Under the pieces are notes generated by a model, which saw only the letters and a program-made list of their open reading frames with translations, had not been told where the DNA came from and ran no database searches. Positions 15,558 to 60,625 of a stretch of DNA of 64,000 nucleotides are shown here, one piece after another (position 1 is the first letter of the stretch; every line of letters begins with the position of its first letter). The stretch comes from Candidatus Bathyarchaeota archaeon (lineage in GTDB: Archaea > Thermoproteota > Bathyarchaeia > Bathyarchaeales > Bathycorpusculaceae), in the NCBI GenBank assembly GCA_963815095.1, contig CAWFFH010000004.1, positions 1-64,000 on the forward strand, in the 5' to 3' direction. Both the position numbers and the translations under genes were made by a program.

Positions 15558-15690
15558 GATCAGGCATAGTCCGACAAAGCATTTAGTTGGGCTGGTTTGG
15601 CTGCTAACAAGAGATAAGCATGTATGTGCCCCTCTTTTGCCTTATCGATGTTAGCACATGGCTAAGCTAGCTTAACCCTTTCTTTTCCCC
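15558..15690 (+). ncRNA. Long-hairpin ncRNA family, copy 1
   Basis: TTTATA at 15531; 16-bp basal stem 15586-15601/15661-15676 with 5 G-U pairs, 4-nt bulge, 8-bp inner stem, pyrimidine-rich tail. Confidence 0.75.
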
Positions 15691-15780
15691 TCTCGACTAA
15701 AACCTGTTTCAACAATCTATCTGTTTCAGTTTCTTTGTTGTCAGCTTTTGCAATGTTAGCTATTTCCAAGTTATTCAGAT

Positions 15781-16005
15781 TTAAGATTTAGCATTCTGCT
15801 CTTTATAGAGCTGCAATACTTCTGCGACAGCTATCAAAATGCCAAGGGTTCCAAACACAATTCCAGACAGATTGTTATCATACCTAAAACCTGGAATAGG
15901 ATTCACTGTCCCATTAGAGAAAACAAAAATAAATCCAGTTAAACCACCAATAATTCCAATGATAAATAATAAAAGGCGAGTTAATGTTGCTCTCTTATAT
16001 TTCAT
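15781..16005 (-). CDS. Small two-TM membrane protein
   Basis: ORF track; two hydrophobic helices. Confidence 0.6.
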   Translation of the reverse strand: MKYKRATLTRLLLFIIGIIGGLTGFIFVFSNGTVNPIPGFRYDNNLSGIVFGTLGILIAVAEVLQLYKEQNAKS

Positions 16006-16102
16006 TCTTTTTAACCTTGAGTATATTCTACACTATGAAGTTTTAATCGTTTGCTAGAAAAAATTATGTTTGAACTTGGGCTTTTATCTCTATAAGAGAC
16101 TG

Positions 16103-16429
16103 TTATATGCACTGAAGAGGCCTTGCAATTGAGGAGTTCTTCAGTTCATGTCCCTTATTTAGAAGTTCTAGCGCCTCATCATTTGTTATTCCGAAAGGGA
16201 GAAAATCTTTATGAAAACTATCTACATGTCTGCGTACTACAGTTATGGCTTCACATATATCGCCTAAGATTTCAAAACTGTAACCGCACGGACATCGACC
16301 TTTTAACCTTCTCCTCATACCCAACATCTCCTCAATCGACTCAAACATATCATGCTGAGATATATACTTCTGTGACTGTGTAGGCGCAATTACAAGACTA
16401 TCATTTGCAGATGTTAGTTTTGCTAACAA
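16103..16429 (-). CDS. Small putative metal-binding protein
   Basis: CPCG...H...H pattern. Confidence 0.5.
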   Translation of the reverse strand: MLAKLTSANDSLVIAPTQSQKYISQHDMFESIEEMLGMRRRLKGRCPCGYSFEILGDICEAITVVRRHVDSFHKDFLPFGITNDEALELLNKGHELKNSSIARPLQCI

Positions 16430-16593
16430 GTCCTTTTATAATTCAGAAAAAACCAACTTTTTCTGAAGACAAGTTCAATAAAAATGCAAAAGGCTGCTTT
16501 GTTTCTAGCCTCGACCACCACTTTTCTTCTTTTGTGTCTGGAGTGGCCTAAACTGAAAAGCACAGTAAGGAAGAGTAAGAAAATTACTAAGCT

Positions 16594-17082
16594 CTATGGT
16601 GGGGGTGGAGGCGGAATGTTTGGCGGGATAATGTTATTCAGGTATTTGTTTTTTCTTCCTCTTCTTTGGTCTTGAATCCAGAACAAACCATAAACTAGTA
16701 TATAGCAAAGGAAGTAAGCGACCAGTATTATGGTGTATTGGTTTAGGTAATCAATTTCATTTATTGTTTTATTGATCACTAAATTATAGTCTAAGTAAAG
16801 GAGCCCTAAACTGACAGCAAAAATAGGTATTACAAATGGTGTTGTCTTGCGAACAAGGTACGCCCTTTTTTTATCTCGTGAAAATGGCTCTAAAAATATT
16901 AGAGTAAAATAGGTAATATAAGTGACATTACTGATGAAATTAGCAGTGTCATTCTCAATTAAGTGGTTGATTTCCTGAAGATACACCCAAAAAGTTATCG
17001 CAATAAATGTTGAAAAAATTATCGAGTAGTAGACTATTCGCTTCCAATTCCTACGGGAAAAGCCTTGTTTCTCAACAGCCAT
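16594..17082 (-). CDS. Four-TM membrane protein with poly-Pro tail
   Basis: Likely start MAVEKQ; hydrophobic helices. Confidence 0.65.
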   Translation of the reverse strand: MAVEKQGFSRRNWKRIVYYSIIFSTFIAITFWVYLQEINHLIENDTANFISNVTYITYFTLIFLEPFSRDKKRAYLVRKTTPFVIPIFAVSLGLLYLDYNLVINKTINEIDYLNQYTIILVAYFLCYILVYGLFWIQDQRRGRKNKYLNNIIPPNIPPPPPP

Positions 17083-17189
17083 AATAACTCTATATCCGTG
17101 TTTGCTTTTAAAACTAATCCAACCTTTTTTTCCAGTACATGGCAAGTTGTTTTTGGGCGGCATCCAAACGGTGATGCTGTTAACAGTCT

Positions 17190-17310
17190 CCTCAGGTGGC
17201 AAGGGGCAGGCAAACCCACAGCGTCGAACACGCCTTTCTCAGTTTCTCTAGCCACTGGTATACGATCTTTGATTAGTCCTTCGCTATATTTGAGCCACAT
17301 TCCTTTTGAA
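17190..17310 (-). pseudogene. Remnant resembling a DNA polymerase X thumb domain
   Basis: KGMWLKYSEGLIKDRIPVARETEKGVFDAVGLP..PPEE resembles the PolX C-terminal GL...TE..(I/V)F..LGLP..PP..R pattern. Confidence 0.5.
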
Positions 17311-17321
17311 AAAGCGGTGTT

Positions 17322-19614
17322 TTAGTAATCTAAGAGATTTTTTTGGTTTTGTCCTGAGATTGTTTCATAAACCGATTGGGTTGTGTAGCCTGCAAAGCTA
17401 AGCAGATTGGCTGCCGAGGCATAGAGCAAAGACAAGTACCTCTTGTTGTCTGGGTTAGTATCTTCTACAATAAGTTGCGCTGCTTTCACTCTGCGCTCAT
17501 GCCGCTTATCTTCTGAGTGGGTGAAAACAAACTTTACGCTGTTGCCCGCATGGACTTCGCAGCCTTCCTTGATTAATTGCTCAGCCGCGATCACTTGACT
17601 GACGTGCTGTTTGTAGTGCTTGGGATTTTTCGACAGATGCTTAGAAATAATTAAATCGCCAATAGGCACATCACCGTCAAGTAGCTTTTGTCGATAAGCT
17701 TTCACAACATCAAACGCTTTGGGAATCTTTTGCATAAACTCACTTGAGTTATTAGCTTCACAGAAAACACGTTGATCATGTCCATTTGGGCATTGTAAAC
17801 AAACTTTGGAGTGTCATGTTTGCGCACTTCTAAGCCTCTGACTTTTAGTTTTCCGCTCTCCATAACCCCATAATAACGGTTTAAAACGCCAATGTTGGGA
17901 TGCATCTTGGAGGGCAAGAACACAATCCATTTGTATCGTCCCTCAAAATTCAGCGGAACCCCAATATCTTTACTTACCTGCTTGCATAACGCGTCGTATT
18001 CTTCCAAAGTGGCGTCTTCCTTTTTGAGCCAAAGCGAATCCACAATTCCATGCAGAACCTCAAACCCTCGACCCTCAGAAATTCGAGCAGCCCTAAGAAA
18101 CGCTTCCCTCCCAAACGCGCAAACCCCAATGTGCCCATCAACCGTTCCAAACTTCGCGTTCCTATAACCCAAATACCCAAAACAGGTAACTAGAATCCAC
18201 TTCAAAGCAGTCTGTCTATTATCGAACATCTCCTTAAGTTTTGGATCTTTGGTTTCATCTCTTAACCTCTTGTAGAGCAACCGTTTGGAAACAACAAGCT
18301 TCAAAGCTCTTGGAACAACACCTTCCCGTTTCTCACAAATGTTATAGTTTAACTCTGGAATGCGCAGATGCGAGTCTGGGCAGCACTTGCAAAGAACCGT
18401 TTCAGCAGAGATGTTGTTGTTAACCATTAAACTTGGATACATTGATGAAAAATCCACTTCGCCTGTGTTGTCGTGAATGCCTACTTTTGGCTCGTAAACA
18501 AAACCGCCTCGGTCAGCAACGAGCAGTTCATAGGCTGATTTGAAGGCTTCAGGGATGCTTTTGTTTCTTGGAATCAAAATTTCTTGTTTAAAGGCTTGGT
18601 AGAACTGCAGCGAAGACATGCTTGAGCCGATGGATGAACGTGATGAAGTGTGCAGGGGTGCTCGGCAGGTTCTTGCTATTTCAAATAGGCCTTGGAAGCT
18701 GGCTTCATTCAGAATGAAGGTGTTGCCTGCGTCGATGTGGACTCTTCCATAAAGTCGAACGGTTGGAGCTCTGTAGAATGTGCGTCCATAGGAAAAGAAA
18801 GTCTTTCCTTGCGCTGCTTTAGGGACAAAAGGCACTTCATCCCTACTTAAAATAAACTTGTCAGACACACCGCTTACGATTGCCCGTTGGAGCAAATAAG
18901 AGAAAAGATACGAGTCCCCACCATTGGTCACTATTAAATCTGGGTCAAGATCCTTCACCATTTTACTTAGTTGTAAGAGCTTTTCTCCTTCATCACCCGA
19001 GTCGATAATGATTTGTTTTTCATCTTGGTTTAAGATTATGCTTGCAATTGGGTCTTGGAGATTTGCGATTTTCCCCGATTTAGCGATCTCAACTTTCAAT
19101 TGCATTAGTTCGCAGCGGTGGAATCGAGTAGTTTACGCTTTCAACAGAATCTTGAAGAGTGTATTTTAGGCCCGTCTTTGAGGACTTCAACTTCTAAGAA
19201 AGCAAGAGGAAATAAATCATGGGCAAAAAAGTAGGTTCTATCCCCACGCAGATCACTGTTATGAACTTCGTAAGTCAGGTAGTCGCCTAATTTTAGTATT
19301 TGATTAGTTAGGGATGAAACCTTTCTGCAATCCTTGAGCGTTATTTCTAAGACTCTTGATTTTTCTGAATCCATCGGGTTCGCAAATTTGTAAACAAAAT
19401 CCCAATTGGCGATGTTTTCATTTGAATAGATGCGCCCGACAAGTTTTTCGACATCTTCTTTCTTGCCTGAAACGTAAATCTTTGGTTGGAACTTGTCGGT
19501 TAATCTAATTCTTTGCCCGTTTTCACTTATGATCCAAACTGCCATCTCTCCAACATTAGCTGGGTAGACGTCGAATATCCAGCCGCGAATCTTAGGGCTG
19601 CCGCTTGATTGCAT
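17322..19614 (-). CDS. polB2: Family B DNA polymerase of the PolB2 group, split into three ORFs by frameshifts
   Basis: DFSSMYPS, Q.ALKWILVTCFGYLG, degenerate motif C HGIVDS, KVRGLE; ORFs 19141-19614, 17702-19105, 17322-17735. Confidence 0.85.
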
Positions 19615-19852
19615 CCAAAGCCTTCTCTAATCGGCAAATCTTCACTTGTTGGGACAGGAGAATCGACATGACCATGGGTTCGAAAAGAATTGGGTTTGTG
19701 GCGTTGCTTCCTGCTGAGGCATAACTTCTGCAAGCGTCCATTAAAGCGTCAAATGCTGCCTTATCCTCAATTCTCAAGGCTTTTTCAAAACCACACCACC
19801 GATTAATTTCATCCTCCAAGGCCATTCGGTAGGATTCAACAGTTTTGCCCAT
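19592..19852 (-). CDS. Small PolB2-operon protein (arCOG07300-like)
   Basis: MGKTVESYR...ALR..D...FD.L pattern; lies between the RadA-like gene and polB2. Confidence 0.7.
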   Translation of the reverse strand: MGKTVESYRMALEDEINRWCGFEKALRIEDKAAFDALMDACRSYASAGSNATNPILFEPMVMSILLSQQVKICRLEKALDAIKRQP

Positions 19853-20608
19853 TACGCATTACCCTCCGCAAAATCTACCAACGTCAAATCTTCTAAAGGA
19901 AGCTCGGCAACTTTTGAGGATAGGTAGGGATGTTTTTCTAAAACAAATTGCCTGGAATAACTTGTTCTTCTTAGAGAAAGAACAACGTTTGCTTTGGCAT
20001 TTGTTAGGGTTTGGAGGGAGCTGTTTCTTGTGGTGTTTGGGTGTTGGGGATAGGTTGCAATTACTATGGTTTGGGTTTCTCTTGCAAAGTTTGAAAGAAA
20101 AGTCGTGACTTGGCTGAATATATCGTTGGGCTTCATCTTCAGGAATATCTTTGTCTAAGAAGAATCCGGCAATATCTGAGATTATGACCAGTTTAGCGTT
20201 GTATTTTTTGATTGATTCCTTTAGATGATGCATAATCAGCGAGGTTGCTTGGTAGGCTGTGAAGGCTCTTGAAATGTAGATGTTGTCTAAAACCTGTTTG
20301 GGGTTAAGATGGCAAAGCTGTGCAAGTCTGGCTATTTGATAGAGCCCAAACGTGTTGCCACCATCAATGAAGATAACATTGCTTTGTAATCCGCCTAGTT
20401 GGGTAGGAAGTTGGGATTTTACGCACAATAAGGAAGTTAAAGATGAAACAGATGAACCTTGTAGAACTGCAAAATCACCCAGTGCGAATCCTGGAAAAAT
20501 CTCATTCACGTTTCTTAGGTTCAGTGGAAAAATCGGTTGAGATAGTGCAGGCTTAACAATTGTATTTTGAATCAAATCACCAATTCTCCTATTTGTTGAG
20601 GATAGCAA
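19852..20608 (-). CDS. RadA/Rad51-like protein with degenerate Walker A, frameshifted near 20120
   Basis: QLP..LGGL, VIFIDGGNTF, IYISRAFTAYQ, LVIISD; no GKT motif. Confidence 0.8.
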
Positions 20609-20777
20609 AAAGCAATTTTGAGCATTTAAGTCATGACTTCAAAAGACATTTCTTCATAGTGGAGACTAAAGTGAAAGTGATCAGTAGATTTTTTAGCCAA
20701 TACTTTAGCTTTAATTAGGATTGCAACCAATTGATAAATCCTCGATAGTTAGCGGATAGACTTGTATTGGTGAGAGT

Positions 20778-21053
20778 ATGCTAAAGCCTTCGTTTGCAGA
20801 GATTTGGAAAAGAATAGTAGCTAGTGAAAATGAGAAATTCACAACTATCTCCAATTTACCCTTCACTTATGAAATAAGTGGCACCGCTTTGTTTCCAATT
20901 GGAACTAAATATAAAATTTTGAAAGCGGACTTCGCCAAAGCCTATGAGTATGTCCCGATTGAAAGTTCAAGCGTCATTTCAAAACTTGTAAAAGGATCCG
21001 ATTATATTTGGTCGATTTTTCAAGACGAGAGAATTTCTAAAAAAGAATGGTAA
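20778..21053 (+). CDS. Hypothetical protein
   Basis: 91-aa ORF with an RBS-like GGTGAG upstream. Confidence 0.65.
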   Translation: MLKPSFAEIWKRIVASENEKFTTISNLPFTYEISGTALFPIGTKYKILKADFAKAYEYVPIESSSVISKLVKGSDYIWSIFQDERISKKEW

Positions 21054-21256
21054 TTTAACCAGTAAGAAAAGAAGAAAAGCACATACCAACAGAGGTTAGC
21101 CATGGAAGTATTCTTCTAACCTGGCATGCTGGGCGAAAAAAAGGCAAAGTCAAATACTTTCTGCCCAATAAGCTGAAACTCAATTAATTATTCCCTGACA
21201 GCAACGTTTGCCAAGAAAAATAGCCTTTCACAAAAATAACAAAATAGTTTTTTGTT

Positions 21257-21392
21257 TAGGGGAGAAGGCGTGATTGGGTGGATTTAGCCTTGTGCAAACA
21301 TCGGGCAAGACGAAGAATGGCAGTACGACCTTGCCTGATTTTGGCAGCCAAATCCGCCCAACCAAAATGCTATGTTGGACTTGTCTGATCAA
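21257..21392 (-). ncRNA. Long-hairpin ncRNA family, copy 2
   Basis: About 200 bp including the promoter is homologous to 15495-15690; hairpin at 21274-21362. Confidence 0.75.
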
Positions 21393-21493
21393 CAATACCG
21401 ATTGAAAATAATATAAAATAATGCTCTCACAAACTGAAACAACAAAAATTCGATCTATGGCAATTTTAAAAAAGGTCTAATCACTTTAGAGTA

Positions 21494-22471
21494 TTGGATC
21501 TTATGTGTTTTTATAAGCCGATGCTTGCCAAACCTGTTTCTAAGCCCTTTTCTGGCAAGGATTGGATTTTTGAGATGAAGTGGGATGGTTTTCGAGCGAT
21601 AACTTACGTTGACGACTTCTTTACAGTTCAGAGTCGCAATGCCAAGGAACTCAAAACATTCTTTCCCGAATTAGATGAACTCAAGCAACTAACAAAAAAT
21701 GTTGTACTCGACGGTGAAATCGTAACCATGAAACAAGGAAAAGTTGACTTTCACTCACTCCAAGAAAGAGGACACGTTATTTCTGCTAGGGAGGTCGAGC
21801 GTTTGCAACAAAAGTCGCCAGCAACTTTCGTTGTTTTTGATATTTTAGAGAAGGATGGGCAGCCACTTGTAGACTTACCTTTGATGGAAAGAAAGGCGAT
21901 TCTAAAAGAATCGGTCAAAGTAGGCTCGCACGTAATAATCAATGATTATGTTGAGGAGAAGGGCGAACAATTCTACCTGGCAGTTTTGCAGCAAGACCTG
22001 GAAGGCATGGTTGCCAAACGCAAAGACAGCTGCTACGAACAAGGACTAAGGACAGGAAGCTGGCTAAAAGTAAAGAACATAAAAAGTTGCGACTGCGTAA
22101 TCTTTGGGTATTCTAGAGGCGAAGGAGCCAGAGAATCGACATTTGGCGCTTTAGTTGTTGGCCTTTACGATAAAGATAGAAAACCAGTCTACATTGCTCA
22201 TGTTGGCACCGGGTTCACCCAACAATTACTCGAGGATCTTATAAGAGATTTCAAGAAACTCAAACGATCTTCGGCACCTTTTATCGCTAGGGACATGGAA
22301 GCGATAACGTGGATTGAGCCTAAGCTTGTCTGTGAAATTATCTATCAAGTAGTTACGAGCGATTGTCGGTTAAGGATGCCAAGCCTCCACACTTTAAGAA
22401 TCGATAAAGAACCCAGCGAATGCACCATAGATCAAATAGAAGGCAAAGGCAAATGCTTTATTGACAAATGA
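21494..22471 (+). CDS. ATP-dependent DNA ligase (LigD/LigC-type ligase domain)
   Basis: KPMLA, EMKWDGFR, LDGEIV, FDIL, EGMVAK, WLKVK, VGTGF, LRMP..LR.DK. Confidence 0.93.
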   Translation: MDLMCFYKPMLAKPVSKPFSGKDWIFEMKWDGFRAITYVDDFFTVQSRNAKELKTFFPELDELKQLTKNVVLDGEIVTMKQGKVDFHSLQERGHVISAREVERLQQKSPATFVVFDILEKDGQPLVDLPLMERKAILKESVKVGSHVIINDYVEEKGEQFYLAVLQQDLEGMVAKRKDSCYEQGLRTGSWLKVKNIKSCDCVIFGYSRGEGARESTFGALVVGLYDKDRKPVYIAHVGTGFTQQLLEDLIRDFKKLKRSSAPFIARDMEAITWIEPKLVCEIIYQVVTSDCRLRMPSLHTLRIDKEPSECTIDQIEGKGKCFIDK

Positions 22472-22507
22472 AAAATCAAATATACAACTTATCTACAAAA
22501 GAAAATT

Positions 22508-22828
22508 ATGGAAATCTGGTATTCACCCCAAGAGACCCTATTCTTAGAATTCAAACTTACAAACGGCTCCGGATGGTTAACCAACAACCGCCTAATAATC
22601 GTGGAACACAAGCCAGGCAAGCTTAACGAAGGAAAACCCCAATACTATTCTCTAAAAAACTTTGAAAAAGCCTAAATAAAAGACACACCCCTGACCGCAC
22701 AATTCCAAACCGGAAAAGTCAAAATCCAACTCCCAACCAACGCCCCAAGCCTACTCCAAGAGATCAAAGACTTCATAGAAGAAGCAGCAAAACAATGTAA
22801 CAAACCTGAAACTCAACAAGCATATTAA
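22508..22828 (+). pseudogene. Small gene with an internal TAA at 22673 (possibly PH-like)
   Basis: MEIWYSPQETLFLEFKLTNGSGWLTNNRLII...EKA*IKDTPLTAQF...; the frame stays open after the stop. Confidence 0.6.
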
Positions 22829-24948: not shown

Positions 24949-24952
24949 CAAT

Positions 24953-26683: not shown

Positions 26684-26684
26684 G

Positions 26685-27320
26685 GTGCAAAAAATGAGTG
26701 AATTACGAATTAGTATACTCAAAGGCGAACAAGCGTTTCCTTCATTCATACAGGACGCAAAGCAACTAAATGCTATACCAACAAACAAAATAGTAGAATT
26801 CGTTGATTGGACTGTTAGACATGAAACCCTTGACATATCTCTGACTGAGAAGGATGCTACTGAAGCTGCAGGAAAATTTGGAACTACAATCACTGACCTA
26901 TTAAGCGCTCTCCGAATAACATTATACTATTTTACAAGAGGTACGAAAGTAACAGAATCCGATTTAGTTTCTGACTTCCAAAAACTCGGTTTTGACTCCA
27001 GTAAGGCTGAGCTGATAATCCAAACCTTGAAAACTGCTTGGAATGACCCCGTAGCAAAACAGTACCTGGCAAAAGCGCGAAAAGAAGCGCTCCCAGAATT
27101 AACAACTATCCACTGGAGAGTAGATGTAAGATATGCTAGCAGCGATTACCTGCCTGAGCCTGAAGCAGTAGCTATTATGAAATTGGGTACCAACGGTCAA
27201 AAGCCTGGAAGTCATATTCACTTTGAGCTAGACTTAAATGAACTAATCTGGCTCGAAAATGAAATAGCAAAAATGAAAAAAGAGTTAATAAGCGCGCAGC
27301 AGAAGCTAAAGCAATCGTAA
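26685..27320 (+). CDS. COMM-domain (COMMD-like) protein
   Basis: Helical N-terminal domain followed by LPELTTIHWRVDVRYASS...EAVAIMKL...IHFELDLNELIWLENEIAKMKKEL. Confidence 0.75.
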   Translation: MQKMSELRISILKGEQAFPSFIQDAKQLNAIPTNKIVEFVDWTVRHETLDISLTEKDATEAAGKFGTTITDLLSALRITLYYFTRGTKVTESDLVSDFQKLGFDSSKAELIIQTLKTAWNDPVAKQYLAKARKEALPELTTIHWRVDVRYASSDYLPEPEAVAIMKLGTNGQKPGSHIHFELDLNELIWLENEIAKMKKELISAQQKLKQS

Positions 27321-27704: not shown

Positions 27705-27920
27705 TTGAATCGGCTAGAAGCTATGTCGCTGCTGAAAGAATTAGTGGCTATCAATCTTGTAGATCCAACGTACCTTCATGTCTCATTGAGAAAACTTGAT
27801 GATTATCAGATTCAGATTAAATGTGATCATAATAAAGAAATAGAAATGTTTGCTAAAAAACATGGTTTAAAGATTGAAGAGGATAAGGAAAGAAAATATT
27901 TGGTTATTTATAAGGAATAG
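27705..27920 (+). CDS. Small hypothetical protein
   Basis: Likely TTG start, MNRLEAMSLLKEL. Confidence 0.6.
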   Translation: MNRLEAMSLLKELVAINLVDPTYLHVSLRKLDDYQIQIKCDHNKEIEMFAKKHGLKIEEDKERKYLVIYKE

Positions 27921-28055
27921 AGAAATTGGTGTTAAGTGGGCTTAGCCTTGTGCTAACATTTGCTGAAATCGAGAGAGAGGAGAAAATGTGGAAATTCGCC
28001 TTATCAAGCATTAGCTGCCAAACCCACTCAACTACTTGTTGGGACGTATCTATGG
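27915..28055 (-). ncRNA. Long-hairpin ncRNA family, copy 3
   Basis: Basal stem GUUGAGUGGGUUUGGC/GCUAAGCCCACUUAAC (28032-27931), CAAG bulge, CTTATATTTT promoter near 28080. Confidence 0.75.
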
Positions 28056-28497
28056 GCAAATAGAAAATATTTAAAATAAAATATAAGATAGTGTTGTCTC
28101 GTTTTGTAACAACTGTTCTAATTATTAATGGCGGTCTGCTCTCAGGGTCATAGAAAAGAGATAGGCTCGGGTCTAGGGGAAACCCATCATTAAGCAAACA
28201 TAAGAAAATCCATCAAACAGAAATATAAGGTTTATTGATTCTTCATATACCATTCTTAGTTCTTTTCCCTTATATGAATAAGTTCGGTGCTCGCTGGAAA
28301 AATAATCTTTCTGCCATTTACTGGGAAGTCAGGCTTTACATACTCAGATTTTATGCCTTAATTCCTTAACAAGTTTAAATTAACAAATAAAACTCATTCA
28401 ATTAAAACTATTTAAAAAAGCTTCTAAGAGGATAAGTCCTGACTTCATCGAAAAATTAAAAACCACACCGCTGCAAACTCGATTTGAGGCTACCTGA

Positions 28498-28761: not shown

Positions 28762-28762
28762 A

Positions 28763-53852: not shown

Positions 53853-53930
53853 TGGCGCCCAGGCCGGGATTCGGACCCGGGTCCTACGGGCGACAGCCGT
53901 ACATACTAGACCGAACTATACTACCTGGGC
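53853..53930 (-). tRNA. tRNA-Asp (GTC), CCA encoded, no intron
   Basis: GCCCAGG acceptor stem, TACGG-CTGTCGC-CCGTA anticodon arm, T-loop TCCGAAT. Confidence 0.92.
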
Positions 53931-54178
53931 ATAAGCGCCGCAACAATACTGACAACTTTAGCTAATTAACCTTTCTCGGATTAGACGTTGAATAGTTTGT
54001 TTATAACGTGGCTGTTTCTTATTGGAGCACGTTTGTTAGATTTTTATTTGGTTTAGCGACATTTTAATACTGTTTAGAATTATTACTGGGTATAATGTTT
54101 AAGGGTGGGTGAATCAAGTTCCTAAAAACTGATGGCAATGCAGTTCTACAGAAATATTGGGTTCCCATAGTCCTGCTG

Positions 54179-56017
54179 ATGTTGACAGCAGCTGCGTTTG
54201 TCTTCGGCGACATCGGCATCTTCACCGCGTTGGTCTTCACTTTTTTAGTACCAGGTTTAATTGCACACAGATTTTTCAATTTAAAGCCGCATGAAATCTG
54301 GGCTTTCGTACCCATCTTCAGCATTTTAGTCTCCGTTACTCTAATTTACTATCTGTCTTTGTCCTTTGGATATTCACAGAACACCATAATTTTCAGTTTT
54401 CTCGCCTTAACCTCAATCTACGCGTTGGTAGTTTACGAGAAAGGCGAACCAATACAATTCCCCAAGTTTCGCAAACTAAAACAGATTAAAAAGACCAATT
54501 TATTGATTTTTGCGATTATATTTCTCGTCAGTCTTGCGGTCCTTTACCAAAGCGTCTGGCGCAGCGACCAATACGGCATTGTACTCACGGGGTCGAATTG
54601 GCAAGACACACCCTTCCATTACGAAATAATCGAATCCCTCAACCAAGGTAACTTCCCACCCCAAACCCCCAACTACATCGGCACCCCTATGACGTACCAT
54701 TACTTTGTAGATTTTCACACTGCTATCATTGAGAAAATGTATGGATATTTGCCCGGGTTGTTGCCTGTTTTAAATGCCTTGTTCATTTTGGTGTTCGGAG
54801 TATCGATTTATGCTTTGGCGCGACCTTACGGCAGAAAAGCTGCGGTTATCGCTACGATTTTAGCAGTTTTTGGTTGGGGGCTAAGCTATTTTGGCTTGTT
54901 CTCTACTCTGTTTAATGGGCAGTTTGATCCGAACCAAAATTACATTTACCAGTTTGGCAAGTTGTTTGGGTTGCCGTCCATGTTTGATAATTTGCTCCAG
55001 CAGCGTCCGTTGCTGGTTGGGTTGCCAGCGTTTGCGTTTGTGTTGGCTTTGCTTAAGGATATAGGTAACAAAAACCGCTTAATCCTTGCAGGCATACTCA
55101 CGGGGTTGGTATATCAGTTCCATAATGTGGCGTTCTTCTGTTGCTACGTCGTCTTCGCTATCTGTCTCATCCTAAACGTTAAACGGATCAAATTCAGCTA
55201 CTTGTACTTCTTGATTCCAAGCGTGTTTGCTTTGCCGTTTATTTTTGGCGGCGGTCCACCGTTAACGCTTGCTTTTAGTACCTCTTTTATTGCCCAGTTT
55301 GCCCAGAACCCCTTCATCTATTACTTCCTTAACCTCGGCATTCCATTCATACTAGCGATTGTCTCGTTTATCAAGCCTGGACACGAATACCTGAAGATAA
55401 CCTTCCTGCTATTGGTTTTGATTCCAAACATTTTGCTGTTAACGCCTTGGGTTTGGGATATGTACAAGTTTTTCATGTTTGCATGGATACCCATCGTGGT
55501 TTTAGCTGGTATAGTTTTGGCTAAAACGCCACGTATCGTTATAGTTACTTTGGTTTTGCTTTCAATAATCACATCAGCCAGTGTAATCATCTACAATGTT
55601 GAAACAAACTATTCTGGAGCAACTATGAGCGAGTACCAGTTGGGGTTGTGGGTTCGTGATAATACACCGCAGAACTCGGTGTTCTTGACTTACTATGGGA
55701 TTCATGAGCCGCCCAGTATGATTGGCGGTCGGTTACGGGTGACGTCATATTTCTATTGGCCATATGGTCATGGAATTCCGATGGATCAGGTTTTCCAGAG
55801 AGCTCATGATGTCGATGTGGCATACACGGGCAACGAAACACAGTTGGTAGGGGTGGTTCGCGAATACAATGTATCATATGTTTATGTTGGAAATGAAGAG
55901 TTGAGCAACTACCCCAATTGCGTTGCGCATTTCAATTCGATTCGGTTGCTTACGCAGGTTTATACGAATGAGAACTTGTTAATCTATCAAGTTGACTGGT
56001 CGCAAATGGGCACCTAG
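54179..56017 (+). CDS. Multi-pass membrane protein, GT-C glycosyltransferase-like
   Basis: NWQD.PFH, FPP..P.Y.G....YHY, many TM helices, C-terminal WVRDNTP..SVF and YNVSYVYVG. Confidence 0.7.
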   Translation: MLTAAAFVFGDIGIFTALVFTFLVPGLIAHRFFNLKPHEIWAFVPIFSILVSVTLIYYLSLSFGYSQNTIIFSFLALTSIYALVVYEKGEPIQFPKFRKLKQIKKTNLLIFAIIFLVSLAVLYQSVWRSDQYGIVLTGSNWQDTPFHYEIIESLNQGNFPPQTPNYIGTPMTYHYFVDFHTAIIEKMYGYLPGLLPVLNALFILVFGVSIYALARPYGRKAAVIATILAVFGWGLSYFGLFSTLFNGQFDPNQNYIYQFGKLFGLPSMFDNLLQQRPLLVGLPAFAFVLALLKDIGNKNRLILAGILTGLVYQFHNVAFFCCYVVFAICLILNVKRIKFSYLYFLIPSVFALPFIFGGGPPLTLAFSTSFIAQFAQNPFIYYFLNLGIPFILAIVSFIKPGHEYLKITFLLLVLIPNILLLTPWVWDMYKFFMFAWIPIVVLAGIVLAKTPRIVIVTLVLLSIITSASVIIYNVETNYSGATMSEYQLGLWVRDNTPQNSVFLTYYGIHEPPSMIGGRLRVTSYFYWPYGHGIPMDQVFQRAHDVDVAYTGNETQLVGVVREYNVSYVYVGNEELSNYPNCVAHFNSIRLLTQVYTNENLLIYQVDWSQMGT

Positions 56018-56086
56018 CATTTACAATGGAGGTCCATATAGCATCTCGACAAGTCTTAAATACAAAAAACAATAAAAATACAACCC

Positions 56087-56506
56087 ATGACAACTAAATC
56101 AGCCAGCAAAATCTCAATCCACAAAATCCTCGTGCTATTCATTATCATTAACATCATCGGAGACCTCGGCAACGTTGCATTCTGGTGGGCAAGCATTTCT
56201 TCGCGAGAAGCATCCCTAAACACAGGATACATCGGAGTCGCTTTAGGCGTCAACAATGCCCTCACTATAGGCACAGTAGTTCTCCTAGTTGTTGCAGTCG
56301 CCTACATTGCAGCGTTTTTCGGCTTAATGAAGCAGATGAAGTGGGCGCTGCCATTAGTCATCGCCATCTCCATAGTGAACCGCGGACTTGCGCTAGTTCT
56401 CTACTTCGTCAGCCCCGCATTTGCTTTCTGGGCAGTCTGGACAATAATACTCGTAGCCCTTGCATACCTTGATTGGCGAAAGATGAACACCACAATGTCA
56501 CAGTAG
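56087..56506 (+). CDS. Four-TM membrane protein
   Basis: ORF track; hydrophobic helices. Confidence 0.75.
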   Translation: MTTKSASKISIHKILVLFIIINIIGDLGNVAFWWASISSREASLNTGYIGVALGVNNALTIGTVVLLVVAVAYIAAFFGLMKQMKWALPLVIAISIVNRGLALVLYFVSPAFAFWAVWTIILVALAYLDWRKMNTTMSQ

Positions 56507-56535
56507 CGACACACGCATACATTTCCTAAATTTTT

Positions 56536-57024
56536 TTATTTCTGGCTTACTGGTGCTTGATGTTTTTTGCCTGAAATGTAATCTATGTCTATTCTTCCCA
56601 TTGTTGTATAAGTGAGTTTTTCAGGTTTAATTTTGGCCAGTTTCGCTTCAGGGTTGAGGGATACTTGCCGAACAAGCACTTCCATTGCGTGCTTTTTCTC
56701 ATTTAAATCGGAAATTAGACACAGTTTGCCGCTAAATTGAACCGATGTATACGCATAATCGCATTCTTCAGTTACCCCAAAATCTAGCAATGCTTGTCCC
56801 CAAACGTTGGGGTTGGCTTTTCCGTAGATGAGTTTTTTACCTTCAGGTGCGCAGTGGAAATAGAGGCAGTTTTTGGTTTGATCGTATCCGTGGCTTAATG
56901 AAACAAGATAAGGTTCGTTTTCCATGCAGAGGGCAACTGTTACATACTTGGTAGCTTTGAGAACCTGACGCATCTCATCAGCGTCGGTGATTTCCCGTTC
57001 TTTACGTCTAACATGAAAAGACAT
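56536..57024 (-). CDS. Pyridoxamine 5'-phosphate oxidase-like (NimA-type) flavin-binding protein
   Basis: RRKEREITD, PYLV.LS, LYFHCAPEGKK, ISGK. Confidence 0.88.
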   Translation of the reverse strand: MSFHVRRKEREITDADEMRQVLKATKYVTVALCMENEPYLVSLSHGYDQTKNCLYFHCAPEGKKLIYGKANPNVWGQALLDFGVTEECDYAYTSVQFSGKLCLISDLNEKKHAMEVLVRQVSLNPEAKLAKIKPEKLTYTTMGRIDIDYISGKKHQAPVSQK

Positions 57025-57051
57025 GAATGCATTTTAAGCGAAAAGGGAATA

Positions 57052-57576
57052 TTAACTTTTTTCGCGCCGCAAGCCATGGTAAGCATTAACCACTTCTGCC
57101 TTGACGAAACACACGACGTCGGGTGTAAAAATAGCTAGCGATGCCAAGAGGAAGTTGAGAGGGAAAACAAGTGGGGATTCAAAAAGGTTACCTCCGTAGG
57201 ATCCATTGATGTTTTGCATGTAGCCCCAGAATTGAAACAGAGACCAACCAGCGGTCCACAGCCACGCACCACCAAGCCGTGCCAAAAACTTCCGCCTTCC
57301 ATTGAACCCTTCGCTGTGTAGATTGGCGTATAGGATTTCTCCTGCGATTGCACCTGCGCCTCCGGGGAAAAACGCGTTAACTAGAACTTTCTCCACAATA
57401 TTTCCGGGAACATATGGGGTAACCCATGGAACCATAAACATGCTCAAGATTGGCAGGTGAATGTTGCCTGTTACAAGCCTAATCGTTGCAGGTATAGAGT
57501 AGATGAGGGCGGCGCAAATTTGCCAAACCCAAAACCGCCTGCTTCGAAGCATGTTTACAATGGCTCTTGTATACAT
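57052..57576 (-). CDS. Membrane protein
   Basis: ORF track; hydrophobic helices. Confidence 0.7.
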   Translation of the reverse strand: MYTRAIVNMLRSRRFWVWQICAALIYSIPATIRLVTGNIHLPILSMFMVPWVTPYVPGNIVEKVLVNAFFPGGAGAIAGEILYANLHSEGFNGRRKFLARLGGAWLWTAGWSLFQFWGYMQNINGSYGGNLFESPLVFPLNFLLASLAIFTPDVVCFVKAEVVNAYHGLRREKS

Positions 57577-57768
57577 AGCCTTTAAAGAATTCTTGATGTA
57601 TTAAAAATCTTTTCAAAATAGCTGAATTAAGTTTAACGGAACCTCTTAAATAGAAAGGCTTAAGGTAGACAGACTATGCCTTTGAATATTAATAATTTTC
57701 ATGTTCGGAGATATGCCTTTAAGCAGCTTCTCTTGTTTTGGGTAAATTGAAATTGTGTTGATGAATTA

Positions 57769-60333
57769 ATGCGAGATATTGATGTTGACTCAGTAACAGG
57801 ACTTTCAAGCGCTGAGGTTTCCCAAAAATTAAAAGAAGATGGCTACAATGAATTGCCCTCTTCCGGAAAACGAACCGTATTCAGCATAGCGTTCAGTGTA
57901 TTAAAAGAACCAATCTTCCTGTTGCTTGTTGCAAGCGGTAGCTTATACTTCATTCTTGGCGACGTCACCGAAGGCATAGTGCTTTTGAGCTTTGTTTTCG
58001 TCATCATCGGCATCACTGTTTACCAAGAACAAAAAACTGAAAATGCATTAGATGCACTAAAGAATCTTTCAAGCCCCAGGGCTCTGGTAATTCGGGATGG
58101 TGTGCAAAAGAGGATTCCTGGACGCGAAGTTGTTTCAGGCGACATAATTATCCTATCTGAGGGCGACCGTGTTCCTGCCGATTGCCTTCTTTTGACCTGC
58201 AACAACCTGATGATTGATGAAGCACTTCTTACTGGCGAGTCAGTTCCAGTGCGTAAGGTTGCTTGGGATGGTGAAGAAAAAACTTACCGAGCAGGCGGCG
58301 ACGATTTGCCTTTTGCCTATTCTGGTACCCTAATAATTCAGGGACAAGCCATTGCCGAGGTCAAGAACACGGGGTCAAAGACTGAAATGGGCAAAATCGG
58401 GGTTGTTTTGCAGAAAGTAGAGCGGGATGAAACTAGGCTAAAGCAAGAGATTAGTCACATAGTGCGAAACAGCGCCATCGTGGGTCTTAGTTTATGTGCC
58501 ATAATAATAGTTGTCTACGGCTTCACACGTCTGGACTGGATAGAAGGTTTCTTAGCAGGTATAACCTTGGCTATGGCAATTTTGCCTGAAGAGTTTCCTG
58601 TTGTCCTAACCATTTTTCTTGCGTTGGGCGCTTGGCGTATGTCTAAGAAAAACGTACTTACCCGACAAGTTCATGCCATAGAGAACCTAGGCGGCGCCAC
58701 AGTTCTCTGCGTAGACAAAACAGGAACATTAACACAGAACAAAATGTCTGTCCACAAACTATTTTCTAATGGTAAATTGTGCGAAATAGAGTCCCATGTA
58801 AAGTTACCACCTGACTTTTGCCATGAACTCGTAGAGTTTAGCGTCTTAGCCTGTAAAGAGGACCCGTTTGACCCAATGGAGAAAGCAATTAAAAGTTTCA
58901 CTGAAGGCGAATTCGCCAAAACTGAGCATGTTCACGATGATTGGCAATTAGTGCAGGAATACCCACTTTCCCAAAAACTGCTTGCAATGTCTAACGTTTG
59001 GATTTCGCCAAGTGGGGACGATTACATAATTGCGGCGAAGGGAGCACCAGAAGCCATAGTTGACCTCTGCCATTTCGATTCCGCTAAAGCAAAAGAGTTG
59101 TCTGTTCACATTCAAGCGATGGCTCAGGAAGGCCTAAGAGTACTCGGAGTAGCGAAGTCATCGTTTAAGAAAACTGATTTGCCGCATGAACAACACGATT
59201 TCGCTTTCAGCTTTCTGGGGCTTATTGGGTTCGCTGATCCCATAAGACAAAATGTCCCAGGCGCCGTTAAAGAATGCTACAGTGCAGGTATTCGTGTAGT
59301 TATGATTACGGGAGATTACCCCTTAACAGCCCAAAACATTGGCCGCCAAATTGGTCTTAGGTCGCCTGAAAACTTCATTACCGGGATAGAACTAGACCAG
59401 ATGTCCGATGAAACTCTGAAAGAACGAATTGGGAATGTTAACATTTTCGCTCGTGTAGTTCCTGAACAGAAACTTCGCATCGTAAATGCTTTCAAAAGTG
59501 CTGGCGAAGTTGTAGCAATGACTGGAGACGGCGTAAACGATGCACCTGCGCTTAAATCGGCAAATATCGGCATAGCCATGGGTGGACGTGGCACTGACGT
59601 TGCGCGCGAATCTGCTTCGATGGTGCTTTTGGATGACGATTTCACATCCATAGTAAGCGGAGTACGGATGGGACGTAGAATATATGATAATCTAAAGAAG
59701 GCAATTGCCTACATCTTCTCAATTCATATTCCTATCGCTGGCATGTCAGTTATTCCTGTGCTGTTTGGGTGGCCACTAATCTTGCTTCCCTTGCACATTG
59801 TCTTTTTAGAATTAATTATTGATCCTGCATGTTCCGTAGTTTTTGAAACTGAAGGAGAAGAAGCCAATATAATGGCTCGTAAACCCCGTAGTATGGATAA
59901 GAAACTTTTCAATAGGGAAGCCGCAATAGTTGCTTTCTTACAGGGTTTTGTTGTTCTGGTTATTGTGGCTCTGATATTCGTAAGTATCATAAATCGAGGA
60001 CTCGGAGAACAAACCGCTCGAACAATGGCTTTCGCAACCATAGTCACCGCGAATCTCGCGTTAATTTTGGCAAACCGCTCATGGGCTCACACAATCATCG
60101 GAACACTCAGAAAGCCCAACAAAGCTTTCTGGTGGATAATAGTAATCGCAATGTCTGCGCTGATATTAGTTATCTATGTTCCCCAGCTTAGTGGGCTCTT
60201 CGCCTTTAGCCCTCTGAACCCGATAAACCTCTTCATCAGCATAGCTGCAGGATTAGCAAGCATAATCTGGTTCGAAATATACAAGGCAGCTAAAATCTTC
60301 AGAAATCGTGAGGACTCAAAAATTTTCAAGTAA
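57769..60333 (+). CDS. Type II cation-transporting P-type ATPase
   Basis: LTGES, PEEF, DKTGT, KGAPE, TGDGVNDAPAL. Confidence 0.95.
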   Translation: MRDIDVDSVTGLSSAEVSQKLKEDGYNELPSSGKRTVFSIAFSVLKEPIFLLLVASGSLYFILGDVTEGIVLLSFVFVIIGITVYQEQKTENALDALKNLSSPRALVIRDGVQKRIPGREVVSGDIIILSEGDRVPADCLLLTCNNLMIDEALLTGESVPVRKVAWDGEEKTYRAGGDDLPFAYSGTLIIQGQAIAEVKNTGSKTEMGKIGVVLQKVERDETRLKQEISHIVRNSAIVGLSLCAIIIVVYGFTRLDWIEGFLAGITLAMAILPEEFPVVLTIFLALGAWRMSKKNVLTRQVHAIENLGGATVLCVDKTGTLTQNKMSVHKLFSNGKLCEIESHVKLPPDFCHELVEFSVLACKEDPFDPMEKAIKSFTEGEFAKTEHVHDDWQLVQEYPLSQKLLAMSNVWISPSGDDYIIAAKGAPEAIVDLCHFDSAKAKELSVHIQAMAQEGLRVLGVAKSSFKKTDLPHEQHDFAFSFLGLIGFADPIRQNVPGAVKECYSAGIRVVMITGDYPLTAQNIGRQIGLRSPENFITGIELDQMSDETLKERIGNVNIFARVVPEQKLRIVNAFKSAGEVVAMTGDGVNDAPALKSANIGIAMGGRGTDVARESASMVLLDDDFTSIVSGVRMGRRIYDNLKKAIAYIFSIHIPIAGMSVIPVLFGWPLILLPLHIVFLELIIDPACSVVFETEGEEANIMARKPRSMDKKLFNREAAIVAFLQGFVVLVIVALIFVSIINRGLGEQTARTMAFATIVTANLALILANRSWAHTIIGTLRKPNKAFWWIIVIAMSALILVIYVPQLSGLFAFSPLNPINLFISIAAGLASIIWFEIYKAAKIFRNREDSKIFK

Positions 60334-60494
60334 AATCTCATTGCAGATTTTTGAAAAAGCTTGTTGGACTAATGTTGTAGGGAAAGTAGCGGGAACCTTA
60401 AACTACAACTTTTGTTAATTTCTAAAATAGACAAGGCAAGAATCAATAAATATAAAATTCTGTAATTGAGCGAGTATGTTGTTTATGTGGCTGT

Positions 60495-60625
60495 AGTCCA
60501 AAAGGAAGAGTTGAGCGGACCAAGCCATACACTAACCAAGACAAGGCCTAAAAATCGGGTGGGCAACGGCCTTTTCTTGGTTAGAAGCCAAATCCGCTCA
60601 ACTTTTGTTGGCTATCCCTTGCATT
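60495..60625 (-). ncRNA. Long-hairpin ncRNA family, copy 4
   Basis: Basal stem GUUGAGCGGAUUUGGC/GCUUGGUCCGCUCAAC (60602-60510), UAUG bulge, 10-bp inner stem, CTTATATTTT promoter near 60650. Confidence 0.75.

Follow-up and report, generated by a model that had tools for sequence, protein, structure and literature searches.

What are the four long hairpins in this 64,000-nucleotide stretch of Bathyarchaeia DNA (the window, taken as a whole), and what could they do? The initial annotation saw in them an unrecognised multicopy family of stand-alone RNAs of about 130 nt, each with a conserved protein-binding scaffold and a variable recognition loop. All hairpin coordinates, strands and stem sequences were verified, as were the bulges, the CC(A/G)ACA leaders, the TTATAT boxes and the pyrimidine-rich tails. 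In the first copy (c1, 15503–15690, + strand) the whole unit can be read in sequence: operator-like box (15503–15526), TATA box TTATAT (15532–15537), leader, hairpin (15586–15676), and a tail with a T-run (15683–15686) followed by CCCC. The c1 hairpin consists of a 16-bp basal stem, a 4-nt 3′ bulge CAUG, an 8-bp second stem and an apical stem-loop; the covariance model matches at 15572–15700 with 123.5 bits, and the promoter profile at 15503–15539. The other three copies lie on the − strand and were located by covariance model and promoter profile. Copy c2 (21249–21445, 100.3 bits) has its box at 21445–21422, TATA at 21416–21411 and a hairpin at 21362–21273 with bulge CAAG. Copy c3 (27907–28113, 93.5 bits) has its box at about 28113–28090, TATA at 28086–28081 and a hairpin at 28032–27931, with bulge CAAG and a longer apical part. 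Copy c4 (60486–60688, 96.7 bits) has its box at 60688–60665, TATA at 60657–60652, a hairpin at 60602–60510 with bulge UAUG and a T-run at 60503–60500, and is divergent from the HisRS gene (60826–62100).

Folding of each window hairpin against 200 dinucleotide shuffles gave −37.2 kcal/mol for c1 (z −4.05), −37.7 for c2 (z −4.45), −32.7 for c3 (z −3.38) and −47.2 for c4 (z −7.44); one shuffle was as stable for c3, and none for the others. The opposite strand was clearly less stable in c1 (−18.7), c3 (−22.3) and c4 (−39.8), and equal in c2 (−37.6). Among 97 unique copies, 95 fold as a single hairpin and 88 are more stable on the claimed strand (mean −37.3 vs −26.6 kcal/mol). The shared fold, a 16-bp and an 8-bp helix with a 4-nt bulge on the 3′ side, is retained via compensatory changes. 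RNAalifold recovered the same 24-pair structure from a structure-blind MAFFT alignment of 10 copies of this genome, in which 8/24 pairs had changed on both sides. In 40 copies from 19 genomes (alignment A3), 91.9% of cells were paired, vs 21–45% with the partner slid by 1–3 columns, and 14 of the 24 pairs had changed on both sides; none of 500 shuffles reached the observed values, in an alignment that was fitted to the model and whose sequences are related, so that these tests are not independent of kinship. Copies from metagenomes paired at 91.6%, with a 5′ strand fixed by the search pattern used; only 5 of their pairs had changed on both sides, which 145/500 shuffles matched, so that covariation in this set is not above shuffles. 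G-U pairs recur at fixed positions (35/39 and 65/67 at one pair), and a C-A mismatch recurs at another stem pair.

The stem sequence is conserved far beyond the pairing requirement, and some G-U pairs are near-fixed, which fits a protein-binding scaffold. Of the scaffold in the initial annotation, then, the conservation stood, and the binding is what we infer from it. An internal loop near the upper stem is purine-rich and, in Watson-Crick register, 3×2.

Each gene begins with a near-palindromic box (TTGTTGtTTCA-n3-TGTgACAACA, containing GTTGTnnCAAnTTGnnACAAC) a few bases upstream of the TTATAT TATA box. Across 86 unique loci most box positions are conserved at 84–100% (in percent, T94 T99 G100 T98 T87 G86 .. 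T84 C93 A93 in the first half and T92 G100 T80 G67 A87 C93 A90 A91 C99 A99 in the second), and TATA positions at 91–99%. The best nine matches of the promoter profile in this genome all lie in front of family members, and TATA starts 51–61 nt upstream of the stem in 61/87 loci. The purine-rich leader of about 25 nt ends in (CUAAGA)GCC or CCAACAA and is followed by the hairpin of about 90 nt. In the tail, six G-poor nucleotides precede UUUU and (C/G)CCC: the first positions after the stem (+1 to +6) contain almost no G, and T reaches 73–97% at +7 to +10. We read the UUUU as a putative oligo-U terminator. An own archaeal-type promoter and a U-run at fixed position in every copy are consistent with the proposed stand-alone RNA, here of 125–135 nt, its ends being predictions from promoter geometry. 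T5+ runs occur inside the apical loop of 51/97 copies; in archaea such runs might themselves terminate transcription, at odds with a full-length hairpin RNA.

The genome (2.7 Mb) holds 12–13 copies, the covariance model giving 12 matches at E ≤ 1.2e-6 and 2 weak ones. Copies within the genome are old and diverged, with a mean column identity of 60%. The family is present in 18/24 genomes of the same genus, with 1–9 copies each, and 72 more full-length copies were found on metagenome contigs. Outside the genus, searches of 145 genomes (69 other genera of the same family), of 16 genomes representing other families of the order and of viral contigs gave no copy. As far as searched, it is confined to one Bathyarchaeia genus. 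No Rfam family matched, either at gathering thresholds or at E ≤ 10. The hairpin RNA gene thus constitutes an undescribed, multicopy, paralogous and strand-specific family without library match, and very probably, judging from its sequence features, a real family of transcribed structured RNA genes.

The initial annotation also pointed to a search for a co-occurring protein family, and one of about 66–70 aa was found. Its member in the window (27708–27920, + strand; profile match E 2.1e-25) faces c3 in convergent orientation; the tail of c3 enters the 3′ end of the gene in antisense and overlaps its stop codon. The protein is predicted as helix-strand-strand-helix-strand-strand (AlphaFold2 model, pLDDT 87). 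By eye it is not conspicuously basic; neither Pfam, NCBIfam nor PDB yielded a relative, and no RNA-binding fold was detectable. In 25 genomes of the genus, copy numbers of RNA and protein correlate (Spearman 0.85), and a member lies within 1 kb of 15/85 RNA matches, in varying orientations, where a rough estimate expects about 0.5. Both are absent from a four-genome clade and separately from G023 in a HisRS tree, and also from G120 and G187; joint absence counts as about two independent events on this single-gene tree. Nine genomes from four other genera carry the protein family too (1–4 copies); the RNA model has no match in them, and a laxer search of 5 of these 9 gave nothing better than E 0.27. 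Hence the link between the two families is partial, and that this protein is the partner of the RNA is a tentative and rather doubtful proposal.

Our preferred reading, with a probability of roughly 0.45, is that these paralogous genes encode a stand-alone, transcription-factor-controlled, protein-binding small RNA of about 125–135 nt. According to this model, a dimeric transcription factor at the palindrome would turn on all RNA genes together, and the RNA would act in trans as a protein-binding scaffold or decoy rather than a programmable guide. The protein would recognise the basal helix, which is nearly invariant, rich in G-U pairs and bulged; two UUUUUG-type runs may offer additional binding sites, and the small alpha/beta protein is the leading partner candidate. 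That the RNA works mainly by binding protein has, from sequence evidence, slightly less than an even chance.

The pyrimidine-rich loop invites a different reading, in which the apical loop, the leader or the tail pairs in trans with purine-rich, Shine-Dalgarno-like regions of mRNAs and the hairpin serves mainly for stability. Loops are on average 77% pyrimidine and differ among paralogues, several with CCUC/CUCC-like runs, and the antisense c3 tail would suit such pairing. However, sequence is most strongly conserved where the RNA is double-stranded, and the 5′ half of the loop varies even between orthologues, while the stem, leader and tail remain constant and the terminal U-run is mostly conserved (T4+ in 79/97 copies). 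Such drift looks like relaxed constraint, not like a programmed guide set, and the variable recognition loop gains little from it. The suspected complementarity to mRNAs or mobile elements was also at chance level genome-wide (13–19 nt, E 0.016–4), except for 16 nt identical to part of an IS110 transposase gene; although that gene has four copies, this counts as a single independent match. We regard base-pairing small RNAs as unlikely. Adjacency to the small-protein gene could instead indicate a two-gene module, toxin-antitoxin-like or cis-antisense, in which the RNA controls or is controlled by its neighbour. The enriched adjacency, the correlated copy numbers and joint absence, and convergent pairs with 3′ ends 0–40 nt apart (c3, C3:1491900 and G022:C7) agree with it, but 70/85 RNA copies lack any member within 1 kb, and orientation and spacing vary (upstream, downstream, same or opposite strand). 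Moreover, the protein gene comes with a TATA and SD-like sequence of its own at the four co-directional loci read, the protein looks soluble and matches no toxin-like family, and it persists without the RNA in other genera; this module is quite improbable.

Genomic positions bear on two further readings. Copies occupy conserved but unrelated sites without a constant neighbour. Orthologous copies lie between the eL31 and aIF6 genes (clusters of 14 and 12 loci) and between the ilvD and TPP enzyme genes (about 10 loci). That the unit is selfish DNA, a promoter-carrying MITE- or SINE-like repeat without a cellular function of its own, would explain its genus-restricted, patchy distribution (0–12 copies per genome) and the differing occupancy between species: the eL31-aIF6 spacer of this genome, about 250 nt, holds no copy, and none of 80 other Bathyarchaeia loci has a copy upstream of HisRS, where c4 lies. 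Some copies also carry along an intact or decayed 34-aa zinc-finger micro-ORF, whose remnants imply a duplicated unit of at least 330 bp. However, the unit is asymmetric, its promoter lies outside the hairpin and its ends have no terminal inverted repeats; no target-site duplications were definable around copies; diverged copies still pair via compensatory changes and strand-specific G-U pairs; and orthologous copies are retained across species. RVT_1 had no match in this genome, and TnpB-type domains only sub-threshold ones; about 13 kb separate the window IS110 gene (1454–2500) from the nearest copy, no copy adjoins a transposase gene, and no transposase is a recurrent neighbour. These points, with the lack of viral matches, make a mobile repeat improbable, though a little less so than the two-gene module. 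A cis-acting leader or attenuator, in which hairpin and U-run set read-through into the downstream gene, is very improbable. The claim that no hairpin stands ahead of a gene on its own strand does not hold for the family at large: among 97 unique loci, 41 have a co-directional ORF (≥ 90 aa) as nearest downstream neighbour, 43 have a convergent one and 13 have none. One set of orthologous copies is followed by a membrane-protein gene that begins 1–55 nt past the element, and in another the gene for the TPP enzyme (acetolactate-synthase-like) follows at a distance of about 335 nt. On the other hand, 43 of the 84 loci with a downstream ORF, against 41, are convergent and at a smaller median distance (160 vs 338 nt), downstream genes are mutually unrelated, and the same promoter and RNA recur regardless of neighbour. 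Least probable of all is a diverged member of a described class missed by the libraries. The single long hairpin, purine-rich internal loop and U-rich 3′ end superficially recall H/ACA or Y RNAs, and the genome has IS110 transposases, but beside the lack of library and domain matches in this genome (TROVE and Piwi included), each candidate class has defining features that the hairpin RNA lacks.

TnpB omega RNAs and IS110 bridge RNAs are likewise structured, 100–200 nt long and possibly multicopy, and this genome has four IS110-family transposase copies; the hairpin RNA, however, has no two-loop bridge architecture or variable 3′ guide and adjoins no transposase gene. With archaeal MITEs and hairpin repeats it shares multicopy intergenic occurrence, a near-perfect inverted repeat of about 90 nt and patchy occupancy between species, but it differs in strand-specific G-U pairing with compensatory change, in a conserved promoter outside the repeat on one side only, in copies that are diverged and not near-identical, and in the absence of target duplications or whole-unit terminal repeats. 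Archaeal H/ACA RNAs are also hairpin-shaped and multicopy and have an internal loop close to the upper stem that is rich in purines; our RNA, in contrast, lacks a large two-sided pseudouridylation pocket, its three bases past the stem are not ANA (A only 23–43%), its internal loop is not a K-turn and its stem sequence is conserved, not target-specific. Y RNAs of the Ro60/Rsr system are closer in their about 100–130 nt, long conserved bulged stem as would-be protein site, pyrimidine-rich unpaired region, U-rich 3′ end and several paralogues per genome. Unlike them, our RNA has no Rfam Y_RNA match at E ≤ 10 and no TROVE-domain protein in the genome, its stem lies between the leader and the tail and is not formed by the extreme ends, and it carries a 4-nt bulge on the 3′ strand. 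Csr/Rsm small RNAs (CsrB, RsmX/Y/Z) are encoded by paralogous genes behind a palindromic activating box bound by one regulator, and sequester small RNA-binding proteins. Our family differs in being archaeal, without sequence or fold similarity, and in forming one long hairpin without repeated GGA loops; its small protein is alpha/beta (H-E-E-H-E-E) and not CsrA-like, with putative RNA binding. Although homologous to neither, the proposed system would resemble Csr/Rsm-type or Ro/Y-RNA-type systems in its logic. The likeness to Csr/Rsm lies in several paralogous small RNA genes per genome, each with a conserved palindromic upstream box, in a multi-paralogue family of very small proteins alongside, and, as proposed logic only, in protein binding rather than extensive base-pairing.

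The four hairpins of the window, c1 to c4 (15586-15676 (+), 21273-21362 (-), 27931-28032 (-) and 60510-60602 (-)), belong to a genus-restricted, multicopy and strand-specific structured element with a dedicated operator promoter, a fixed U-run and stable inheritance at several loci. Their stems, 4-nt 3' bulges, CC(A/G)ACA leaders, TTATAT boxes and pyrimidine-rich tails were confirmed as the initial annotation had given them. Folding z-scores of c1 to c4 were -4.05, -4.45, -3.38 and -7.44 relative to dinucleotide shuffles, and 0, 0, 1 and 0 of 200 shuffles folded as well. The opposite strand folded much worse for three of the four hairpins, and c2 was equal on both strands. For the copies of the window's genome, a structure-blind alignment folded with RNAalifold gave a consensus in which a basal helix of 16 bp is followed by a 4-nt 3' bulge and a second helix of 8 bp, with changes on both sides in 8 of 24 pairs.

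In an alignment of 40 copies from 19 genomes, 91.9% of cells were paired, compared with 21-45% when partners were slid, and 14 of 24 pairs had changed on both sides. These values were reached by 0 of 500 shuffles, a count that should not be read as a probability because the alignment followed the model and its sequences are related; relatedness and model fitting influence the covariation statistics in general. In the metagenome set, pairing was 91.6% and covariation did not exceed shuffles (5 both-side pairs, reached by 145/500), as expected with a 5' strand fixed by the search pattern, and this set is no independent support for the structure.

Across 97 unique copies, 95 fold as a single hairpin, and 88 are more stable on the claimed strand (mean -37.3 vs -26.6 kcal/mol). 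Sequence conservation of the stem is well above what pairing needs, and G-U pairs are almost fixed at some positions. One basal-helix pair repeatedly has C opposite A (columns 28/125 of the genome alignment and 28/129 of the metagenome alignment), being unpaired in 16/39 genome cells and 43/68 metagenome cells and U-A or C-G in the others; this recurrent mismatch may be a conserved non-canonical pair. With a median length of 14 nt, the apical loop is 77% pyrimidine. Runs of at least four T occur in the apical part of 79/97 copies and runs of at least five in 51/97, and the latter might yield a second, shorter RNA. By eye, the internal loop is 3x2 in Watson-Crick register and hence no K-turn, and short reading frames across the hairpin keep no conserved register between copies.

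Each hairpin stands behind a promoter of its own. The consensus TTGTTGtTTCA-n3-TGTgACAACAT-n4-5-TTATAT lies upstream of 86 unique copies, each position being conserved at 84-100% within the box and at 91-99% within the TATA box. Read from this consensus, the box is a near-palindrome of 21 bp, GTTGTnnCAAnTTGnnACAAC. In archaea, transcription starts about 26-27 nt downstream of the TATA box and is terminated at oligo-T; since the host is a member of Bathyarchaeia, the promoters are archaeal. In 61/87 loci, 51-61 nt separate the start of the TATA box from the stem, from which a leader of ~23-29 nt is predicted; it is rich in purines and has CUAAGAGCC-, GGAUAGCCAACAA- or GUCCAACA-type motifs at its end. 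The tail behind the stem begins with six bases almost devoid of G, followed by T at 73-97% in positions +7 to +10 and by (C/G)CCC; four or more consecutive T fall inside the first 16 nt of the tail in 84/97 copies. Promoter, hairpin and tail define a self-contained unit of ~190 bp with a predicted RNA of ~125-135 nt, and similarity between c1 and c2 covers just this unit.

When the window's genome was searched with the promoter profile, the nine best matches all stood in front of RNA family members. Weaker matches precede a few protein genes, including a small gene (15235-15462 (+)) just upstream of c1 that encodes a 75-aa stand-alone Lrp/AsnC ligand-binding (RAM) domain protein; its promoter-like site at 15174-15207 matches the profile weakly (E 0.0034). 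Relatives also lie beside RNA copies at three other loci, upstream in L034 and at the copy on contig C2 of this genome and downstream in L022. On contig C3 of the same genome, at 331929 (-), a promoter with a box of the family type (GTTGTTTCATGCTGTTACAAC ... TTTATAA) stands before a gene whose product is a small zinc-ribbon-like protein, and not before an RNA copy; use of the operator is thus not entirely restricted to the RNA family. A gene of the small-protein family described below (C3:332271-332477) adjoins this promoter.

The window's genome (2.69 Mb, 9 contigs, 98% complete) contains 12 strong and 2 weak copies, as found with a sequence profile and a covariance model (R1) built from 10 of its own copies; one of the weak copies, at C6:6974-7107, has the family promoter. 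Two copies on the 11-kb contig C2, a paralogue or variant of window 15-20.5 kb, form a 288-bp direct repeat. In the proposed search of related genomes, R1 matched 18 of the 24 remaining genomes in the genus (1-9 matches per genome) and none of 16 that represent the 11 other families of the order. A second model (R2), built from 40 copies, was applied to 145 genomes covering 69 further genera of the family and gave no match; this search may overlook weak relatives because its filters were stricter and few candidates were scored per genome, and all absences in other genera refer to covariance searches with filters, over a sample of genomes some of which are incomplete. With an exact IUPAC pattern of the 5' strand, 0 viral contigs and 109 metagenome stretches were matched, and the 80 metagenome loci returned gave 79 model matches. 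Four of these were cut by contig ends and three were weak opposite-strand shadows, and the remaining 72 were used. After merging and removal of duplicates, 97 distinct hairpins with both ends recognised were obtained.

ORF clustering round 40 and 111 loci gave no constant neighbour gene. The clusters that do recur are the small-protein family and orthologous flanking genes (eL31, aIF6, ilvD and a TPP enzyme). One RNA paralogue occupies the eL31-aIF6 spacer on the opposite strand (14 and 12 loci in the two clusters), another lies between ilvD and the TPP enzyme on the same strand (about 10 loci), and a third directly upstream of a membrane-protein gene (7 loci). Within orthologous groups, leader, stems and tail are nearly constant and the 5' half of the apical loop drifts. 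Together with the RAM-domain protein beside c1, the position of a paralogue between ilvD and an acetolactate-synthase-like gene may indicate a link to amino-acid sensing.

Accompanying micro-ORFs suggest that new copies are gained when a unit of at least 330 bp is duplicated. In one RNA subfamily, a micro-ORF for a 34-aa C2H2 zinc finger (CxxC...HxxxxH) stops shortly upstream of the promoter box, at a distance of about 95-105 nt from the RNA match and ~110-120 nt from the stem. It is intact at loci L150, L164/L202, L203 and L175, and decayed, with stop codons, beside other RNA copies at L014, L143, L161, L171 and L145; the window's genome has only a distant relative (C3:808304-808396). Two inverted RNA copies in genome G003 lie within an inverted duplication of >3 kb with 97% identity, which is not RNA-specific. 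Species differ in which sites are occupied. The site of c4, beside the HisRS gene (60826-62100), holds a copy in 0 of 80 HisRS loci of other Bathyarchaeia, and since only about 60 nt upstream of HisRS can be aligned, no clean empty site is definable. At locus L023 of genome G013, a 5S rRNA gene (929-1048 (-)) lies about 450 nt upstream of the RNA copy.

A DNA search with the c3 region showed that its most widely repeated part is not the RNA, but a convergent small gene (27708-27920) that overlaps the c3 tail with its stop codon. Related proteins have 66-93 aa. The AlphaFold2 model (pLDDT 87) has the order helix-strand-strand-helix-strand-strand. No relative was found in Pfam, NCBIfam or PDB sequences, and Foldseek against the PDB gave no significant one (best E 0.44, TM <=0.58). 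An Atlas search returned hypothetical clusters only, with scores <=0.83. World-wide, the profile of this small-protein family matched 625 clusters at E<=0.001, almost all of them stand-alone small proteins; a match in a 933-aa FN3-repeat protein was partial and spurious.

Within the genus, the link between RNA and small protein is clear. Over 25 genomes, the per-genome counts of the two have a Spearman correlation of 0.85. Each of the 18 RNA-positive genomes has two or more small-protein matches, and the six RNA-negative genomes gave 0, 0, 0, 0 or one weak match. Two additional genomes of the genus, G120 and G187, have neither. In the HisRS tree, genomes lacking both form one clade of four (support 100/99) and a separate lineage, G023, and joint absence would represent about two independent events on this single-gene tree. 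Moreover, a small-protein member lies within 1 kb of 15 of 85 RNA matches, in every relative arrangement, compared with ~0.5 expected by a rough estimate; in the window's genome, this holds for 3 of 14 members. Obligate partnership is opposed by the 70 of the 85 RNA copies that have no member nearby, by the protein gene's own TATA and SD-like sequence in all four co-directional loci read, and by nine genomes of four other genera with 1-4 members and no detectable RNA; a laxer RNA search of five of these nine gave nothing better than E 0.27.

Other features of the window deserve mention. A cluster at 17322-22471, possibly an integrated element that replicates itself, encodes a family-B DNA polymerase, here broken into two frames that overlap (17322-17735 and 17702-19105), a Rad51/RadA-like ATPase (19859-20608) and an ATP-dependent DNA ligase (21494-22471). 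Two paralogues of the polymerase region occur in the same genome, at C2:1-3212 and C4:230446-233645, with 78-88% DNA identity. On C2 the polymerase is intact (758 aa), and a 5.4-kb insert lies between the two 288-bp direct repeats, each with an RNA copy. A repeat of ~100-150 bp with 82-88% identity (window 15045-15146 and 22470-22570, C3:1334998-1335151 and C1:6088-6241) resembles the conserved start of a small paralogous gene, beginning ATGGAAATCTGG..., and its two window copies are inverted round the polymerase cluster. This 100-bp inverted match was rejected as a terminal repeat of the polymerase region, being the start of the paralogous gene at four places. An IS110-family transposase (DEDD_Tnp_IS110 and Transposase_20) is encoded at 1454-2500 (-); near-identical IS110 flanks occur at C4:1745, C4:84532, C3:1061731 and C3:1399483, and a 16-nt identity between its coding sequence and the 5' stem of c1 is taken as chance. 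A 211-aa protein (26685-27320 (+)) has a C-terminal match to the COMM domain (E 5.1e-06, above the Pfam cut-off), which is known mainly from eukaryotes.

From the arrangement of promoter and tail, each family copy would be transcribed as an RNA of ~130 nt, and a dimeric factor at the palindrome would probably co-regulate all copies; archaea are known to have activators with binding sites upstream of the TATA box. The invariant helix, fixed G-U pairs, bulge, drifting loop and two UUUUUG-type runs point to protein recognition rather than programmable base-pairing, and hence we favour a protein-binding scaffold or decoy RNA, for which the small alpha/beta family is the best candidate partner. The most probable alternative is a base-pairing sRNA acting through the apical loop. 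Its pyrimidine richness would suit such a role, and a variable recognition loop had been proposed from the window's four copies; the conservation pattern speaks against it, and a short-match search of the genome with its own RNAs gave chance-level matches only. Somewhat less probable is a selfish repeat that carries its own promoter. Copies do seem to multiply by duplication of the unit, and the conserved unit extends past the hairpin by at least 80 nt, on the upstream side only. Comparison of an occupied eL31-aIF6 spacer with the empty one of the window's genome (about 250 nt) revealed no terminal repeats or target duplications, in spacers whose A/T-rich sequence has diverged so far that the unit boundaries are not definable. 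A MITE with near-identical copies disagrees with a mean column identity of 60% among 10 copies of the window's genome, and one with strand-symmetric pairing disagrees with the strand preference of 88/97 copies.

Intermediate among the alternatives is a two-gene module of RNA and small protein, which would account for the shared copy number and joint absence and is opposed by the many copies that stand without a nearby member. A cis-acting leader is less probable again. Co-directional genes follow at 41 of the 97 unique loci, and the paralogue before the membrane-protein gene has the position of a leader; 43 loci have a convergent gene and 13 no ORF, so that orientation is random. These numbers also removed a convergent-gene bias suggested by the window's genome, where 9/11 copies face the downstream gene. 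Least probable of the five is a known RNA class that was missed. Beyond the favoured scaffold or decoy RNA, the hairpin RNAs and ~70-aa alpha/beta proteins could together constitute a new archaeal RNP system of expandable paralogous RNPs, switched together by one factor through the palindromic operator and serving as a sequestration, regulatory or defence network without homology to Csr/Rsm, Ro/Y RNA, Hfq/Lsm or CRISPR-type systems. We give this proposal roughly one chance in five.

Bathyarchaeia are abundant, uncultured archaea, and for a find made from sequence only the RNA family is unusually well defined, with about 100 distinct copies, strand-specific pairing, an operator conserved at 84-100% and a fixed terminator geometry. 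The operator offers a handle on the regulator of a candidate archaeal regulon of RNA genes, the conserved bulged G-U helix one on the binding protein, and the co-varying family of tiny orphan proteins a third. If RNA and protein work together, they would form a new archaeal RNP; otherwise the family is still a clean new entry for Rfam and a marker of the genus.

Every known class that was compared fails on a defining feature. Rfam (release 15, gathering thresholds) matched only tRNA-Asp at 53856-53930 in the whole window and left the hairpins unmatched, and at E<=10 ten copy-bearing loci gave 5S rRNA and two chance-level matches, none on a hairpin. ARAGORN, used for tRNA and tmRNA, likewise reported one tRNA-Asp and nothing at the four hairpin sites. 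For Y RNA, the Y_RNA model had no match at E<=10, and PF05731 (Ro60/TROVE) gave 0 matches in the 98%-complete genome, with control genomes matched as expected. Archaeal H/ACA sRNA is contradicted by the lack of a fixed ACA after the stem (A at 23%, 43% and 41% in positions +1 to +3 of 97 copies) and by a one-sided 4-nt bulge and small 3x2 internal loop in place of a two-sided pseudouridylation pocket. Archaeal C/D box sRNAs have C (RUGAUGA) and D (CUGA) boxes at the ends of an RNA of ~60 nt; by eye, these boxes are absent from the conserved columns, and the Rfam C/D models were unmatched.

RNAs of mobile elements and defence systems fit no better. For TnpB/IscB omega RNA, PF07282 gave one sub-threshold match (21 bits vs a cut-off of 26.3), near no copy, and no transposase is among the recurrent neighbours in 111 loci. 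The genome's four IS110 transposase copies, including the one in the window, adjoin no RNA copy, contrary to a bridge RNA. Retron or other reverse-transcriptase-associated ncRNAs and Argonaute guide precursors are opposed by 0 matches in the window's genome to PF00078 (RVT_1) and PF02171 (Piwi), respectively. A type I antitoxin RNA would conflict with a small-protein gene within 1 kb of only 15/85 copies, in variable arrangement, and with a protein predicted to be a soluble alpha/beta fold. In those parts of the literature that our search reached, no non-coding RNAs of Bathyarchaeia and no such RNA were found described. We rate the family itself as new, within the known kind of stand-alone structured small RNA gene families. 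In Csr/Rsm systems, several sRNA genes stand behind one palindromic activating box and are accompanied by small-protein paralogues; this is the nearest analogy to the present family, in logic and not in homology.
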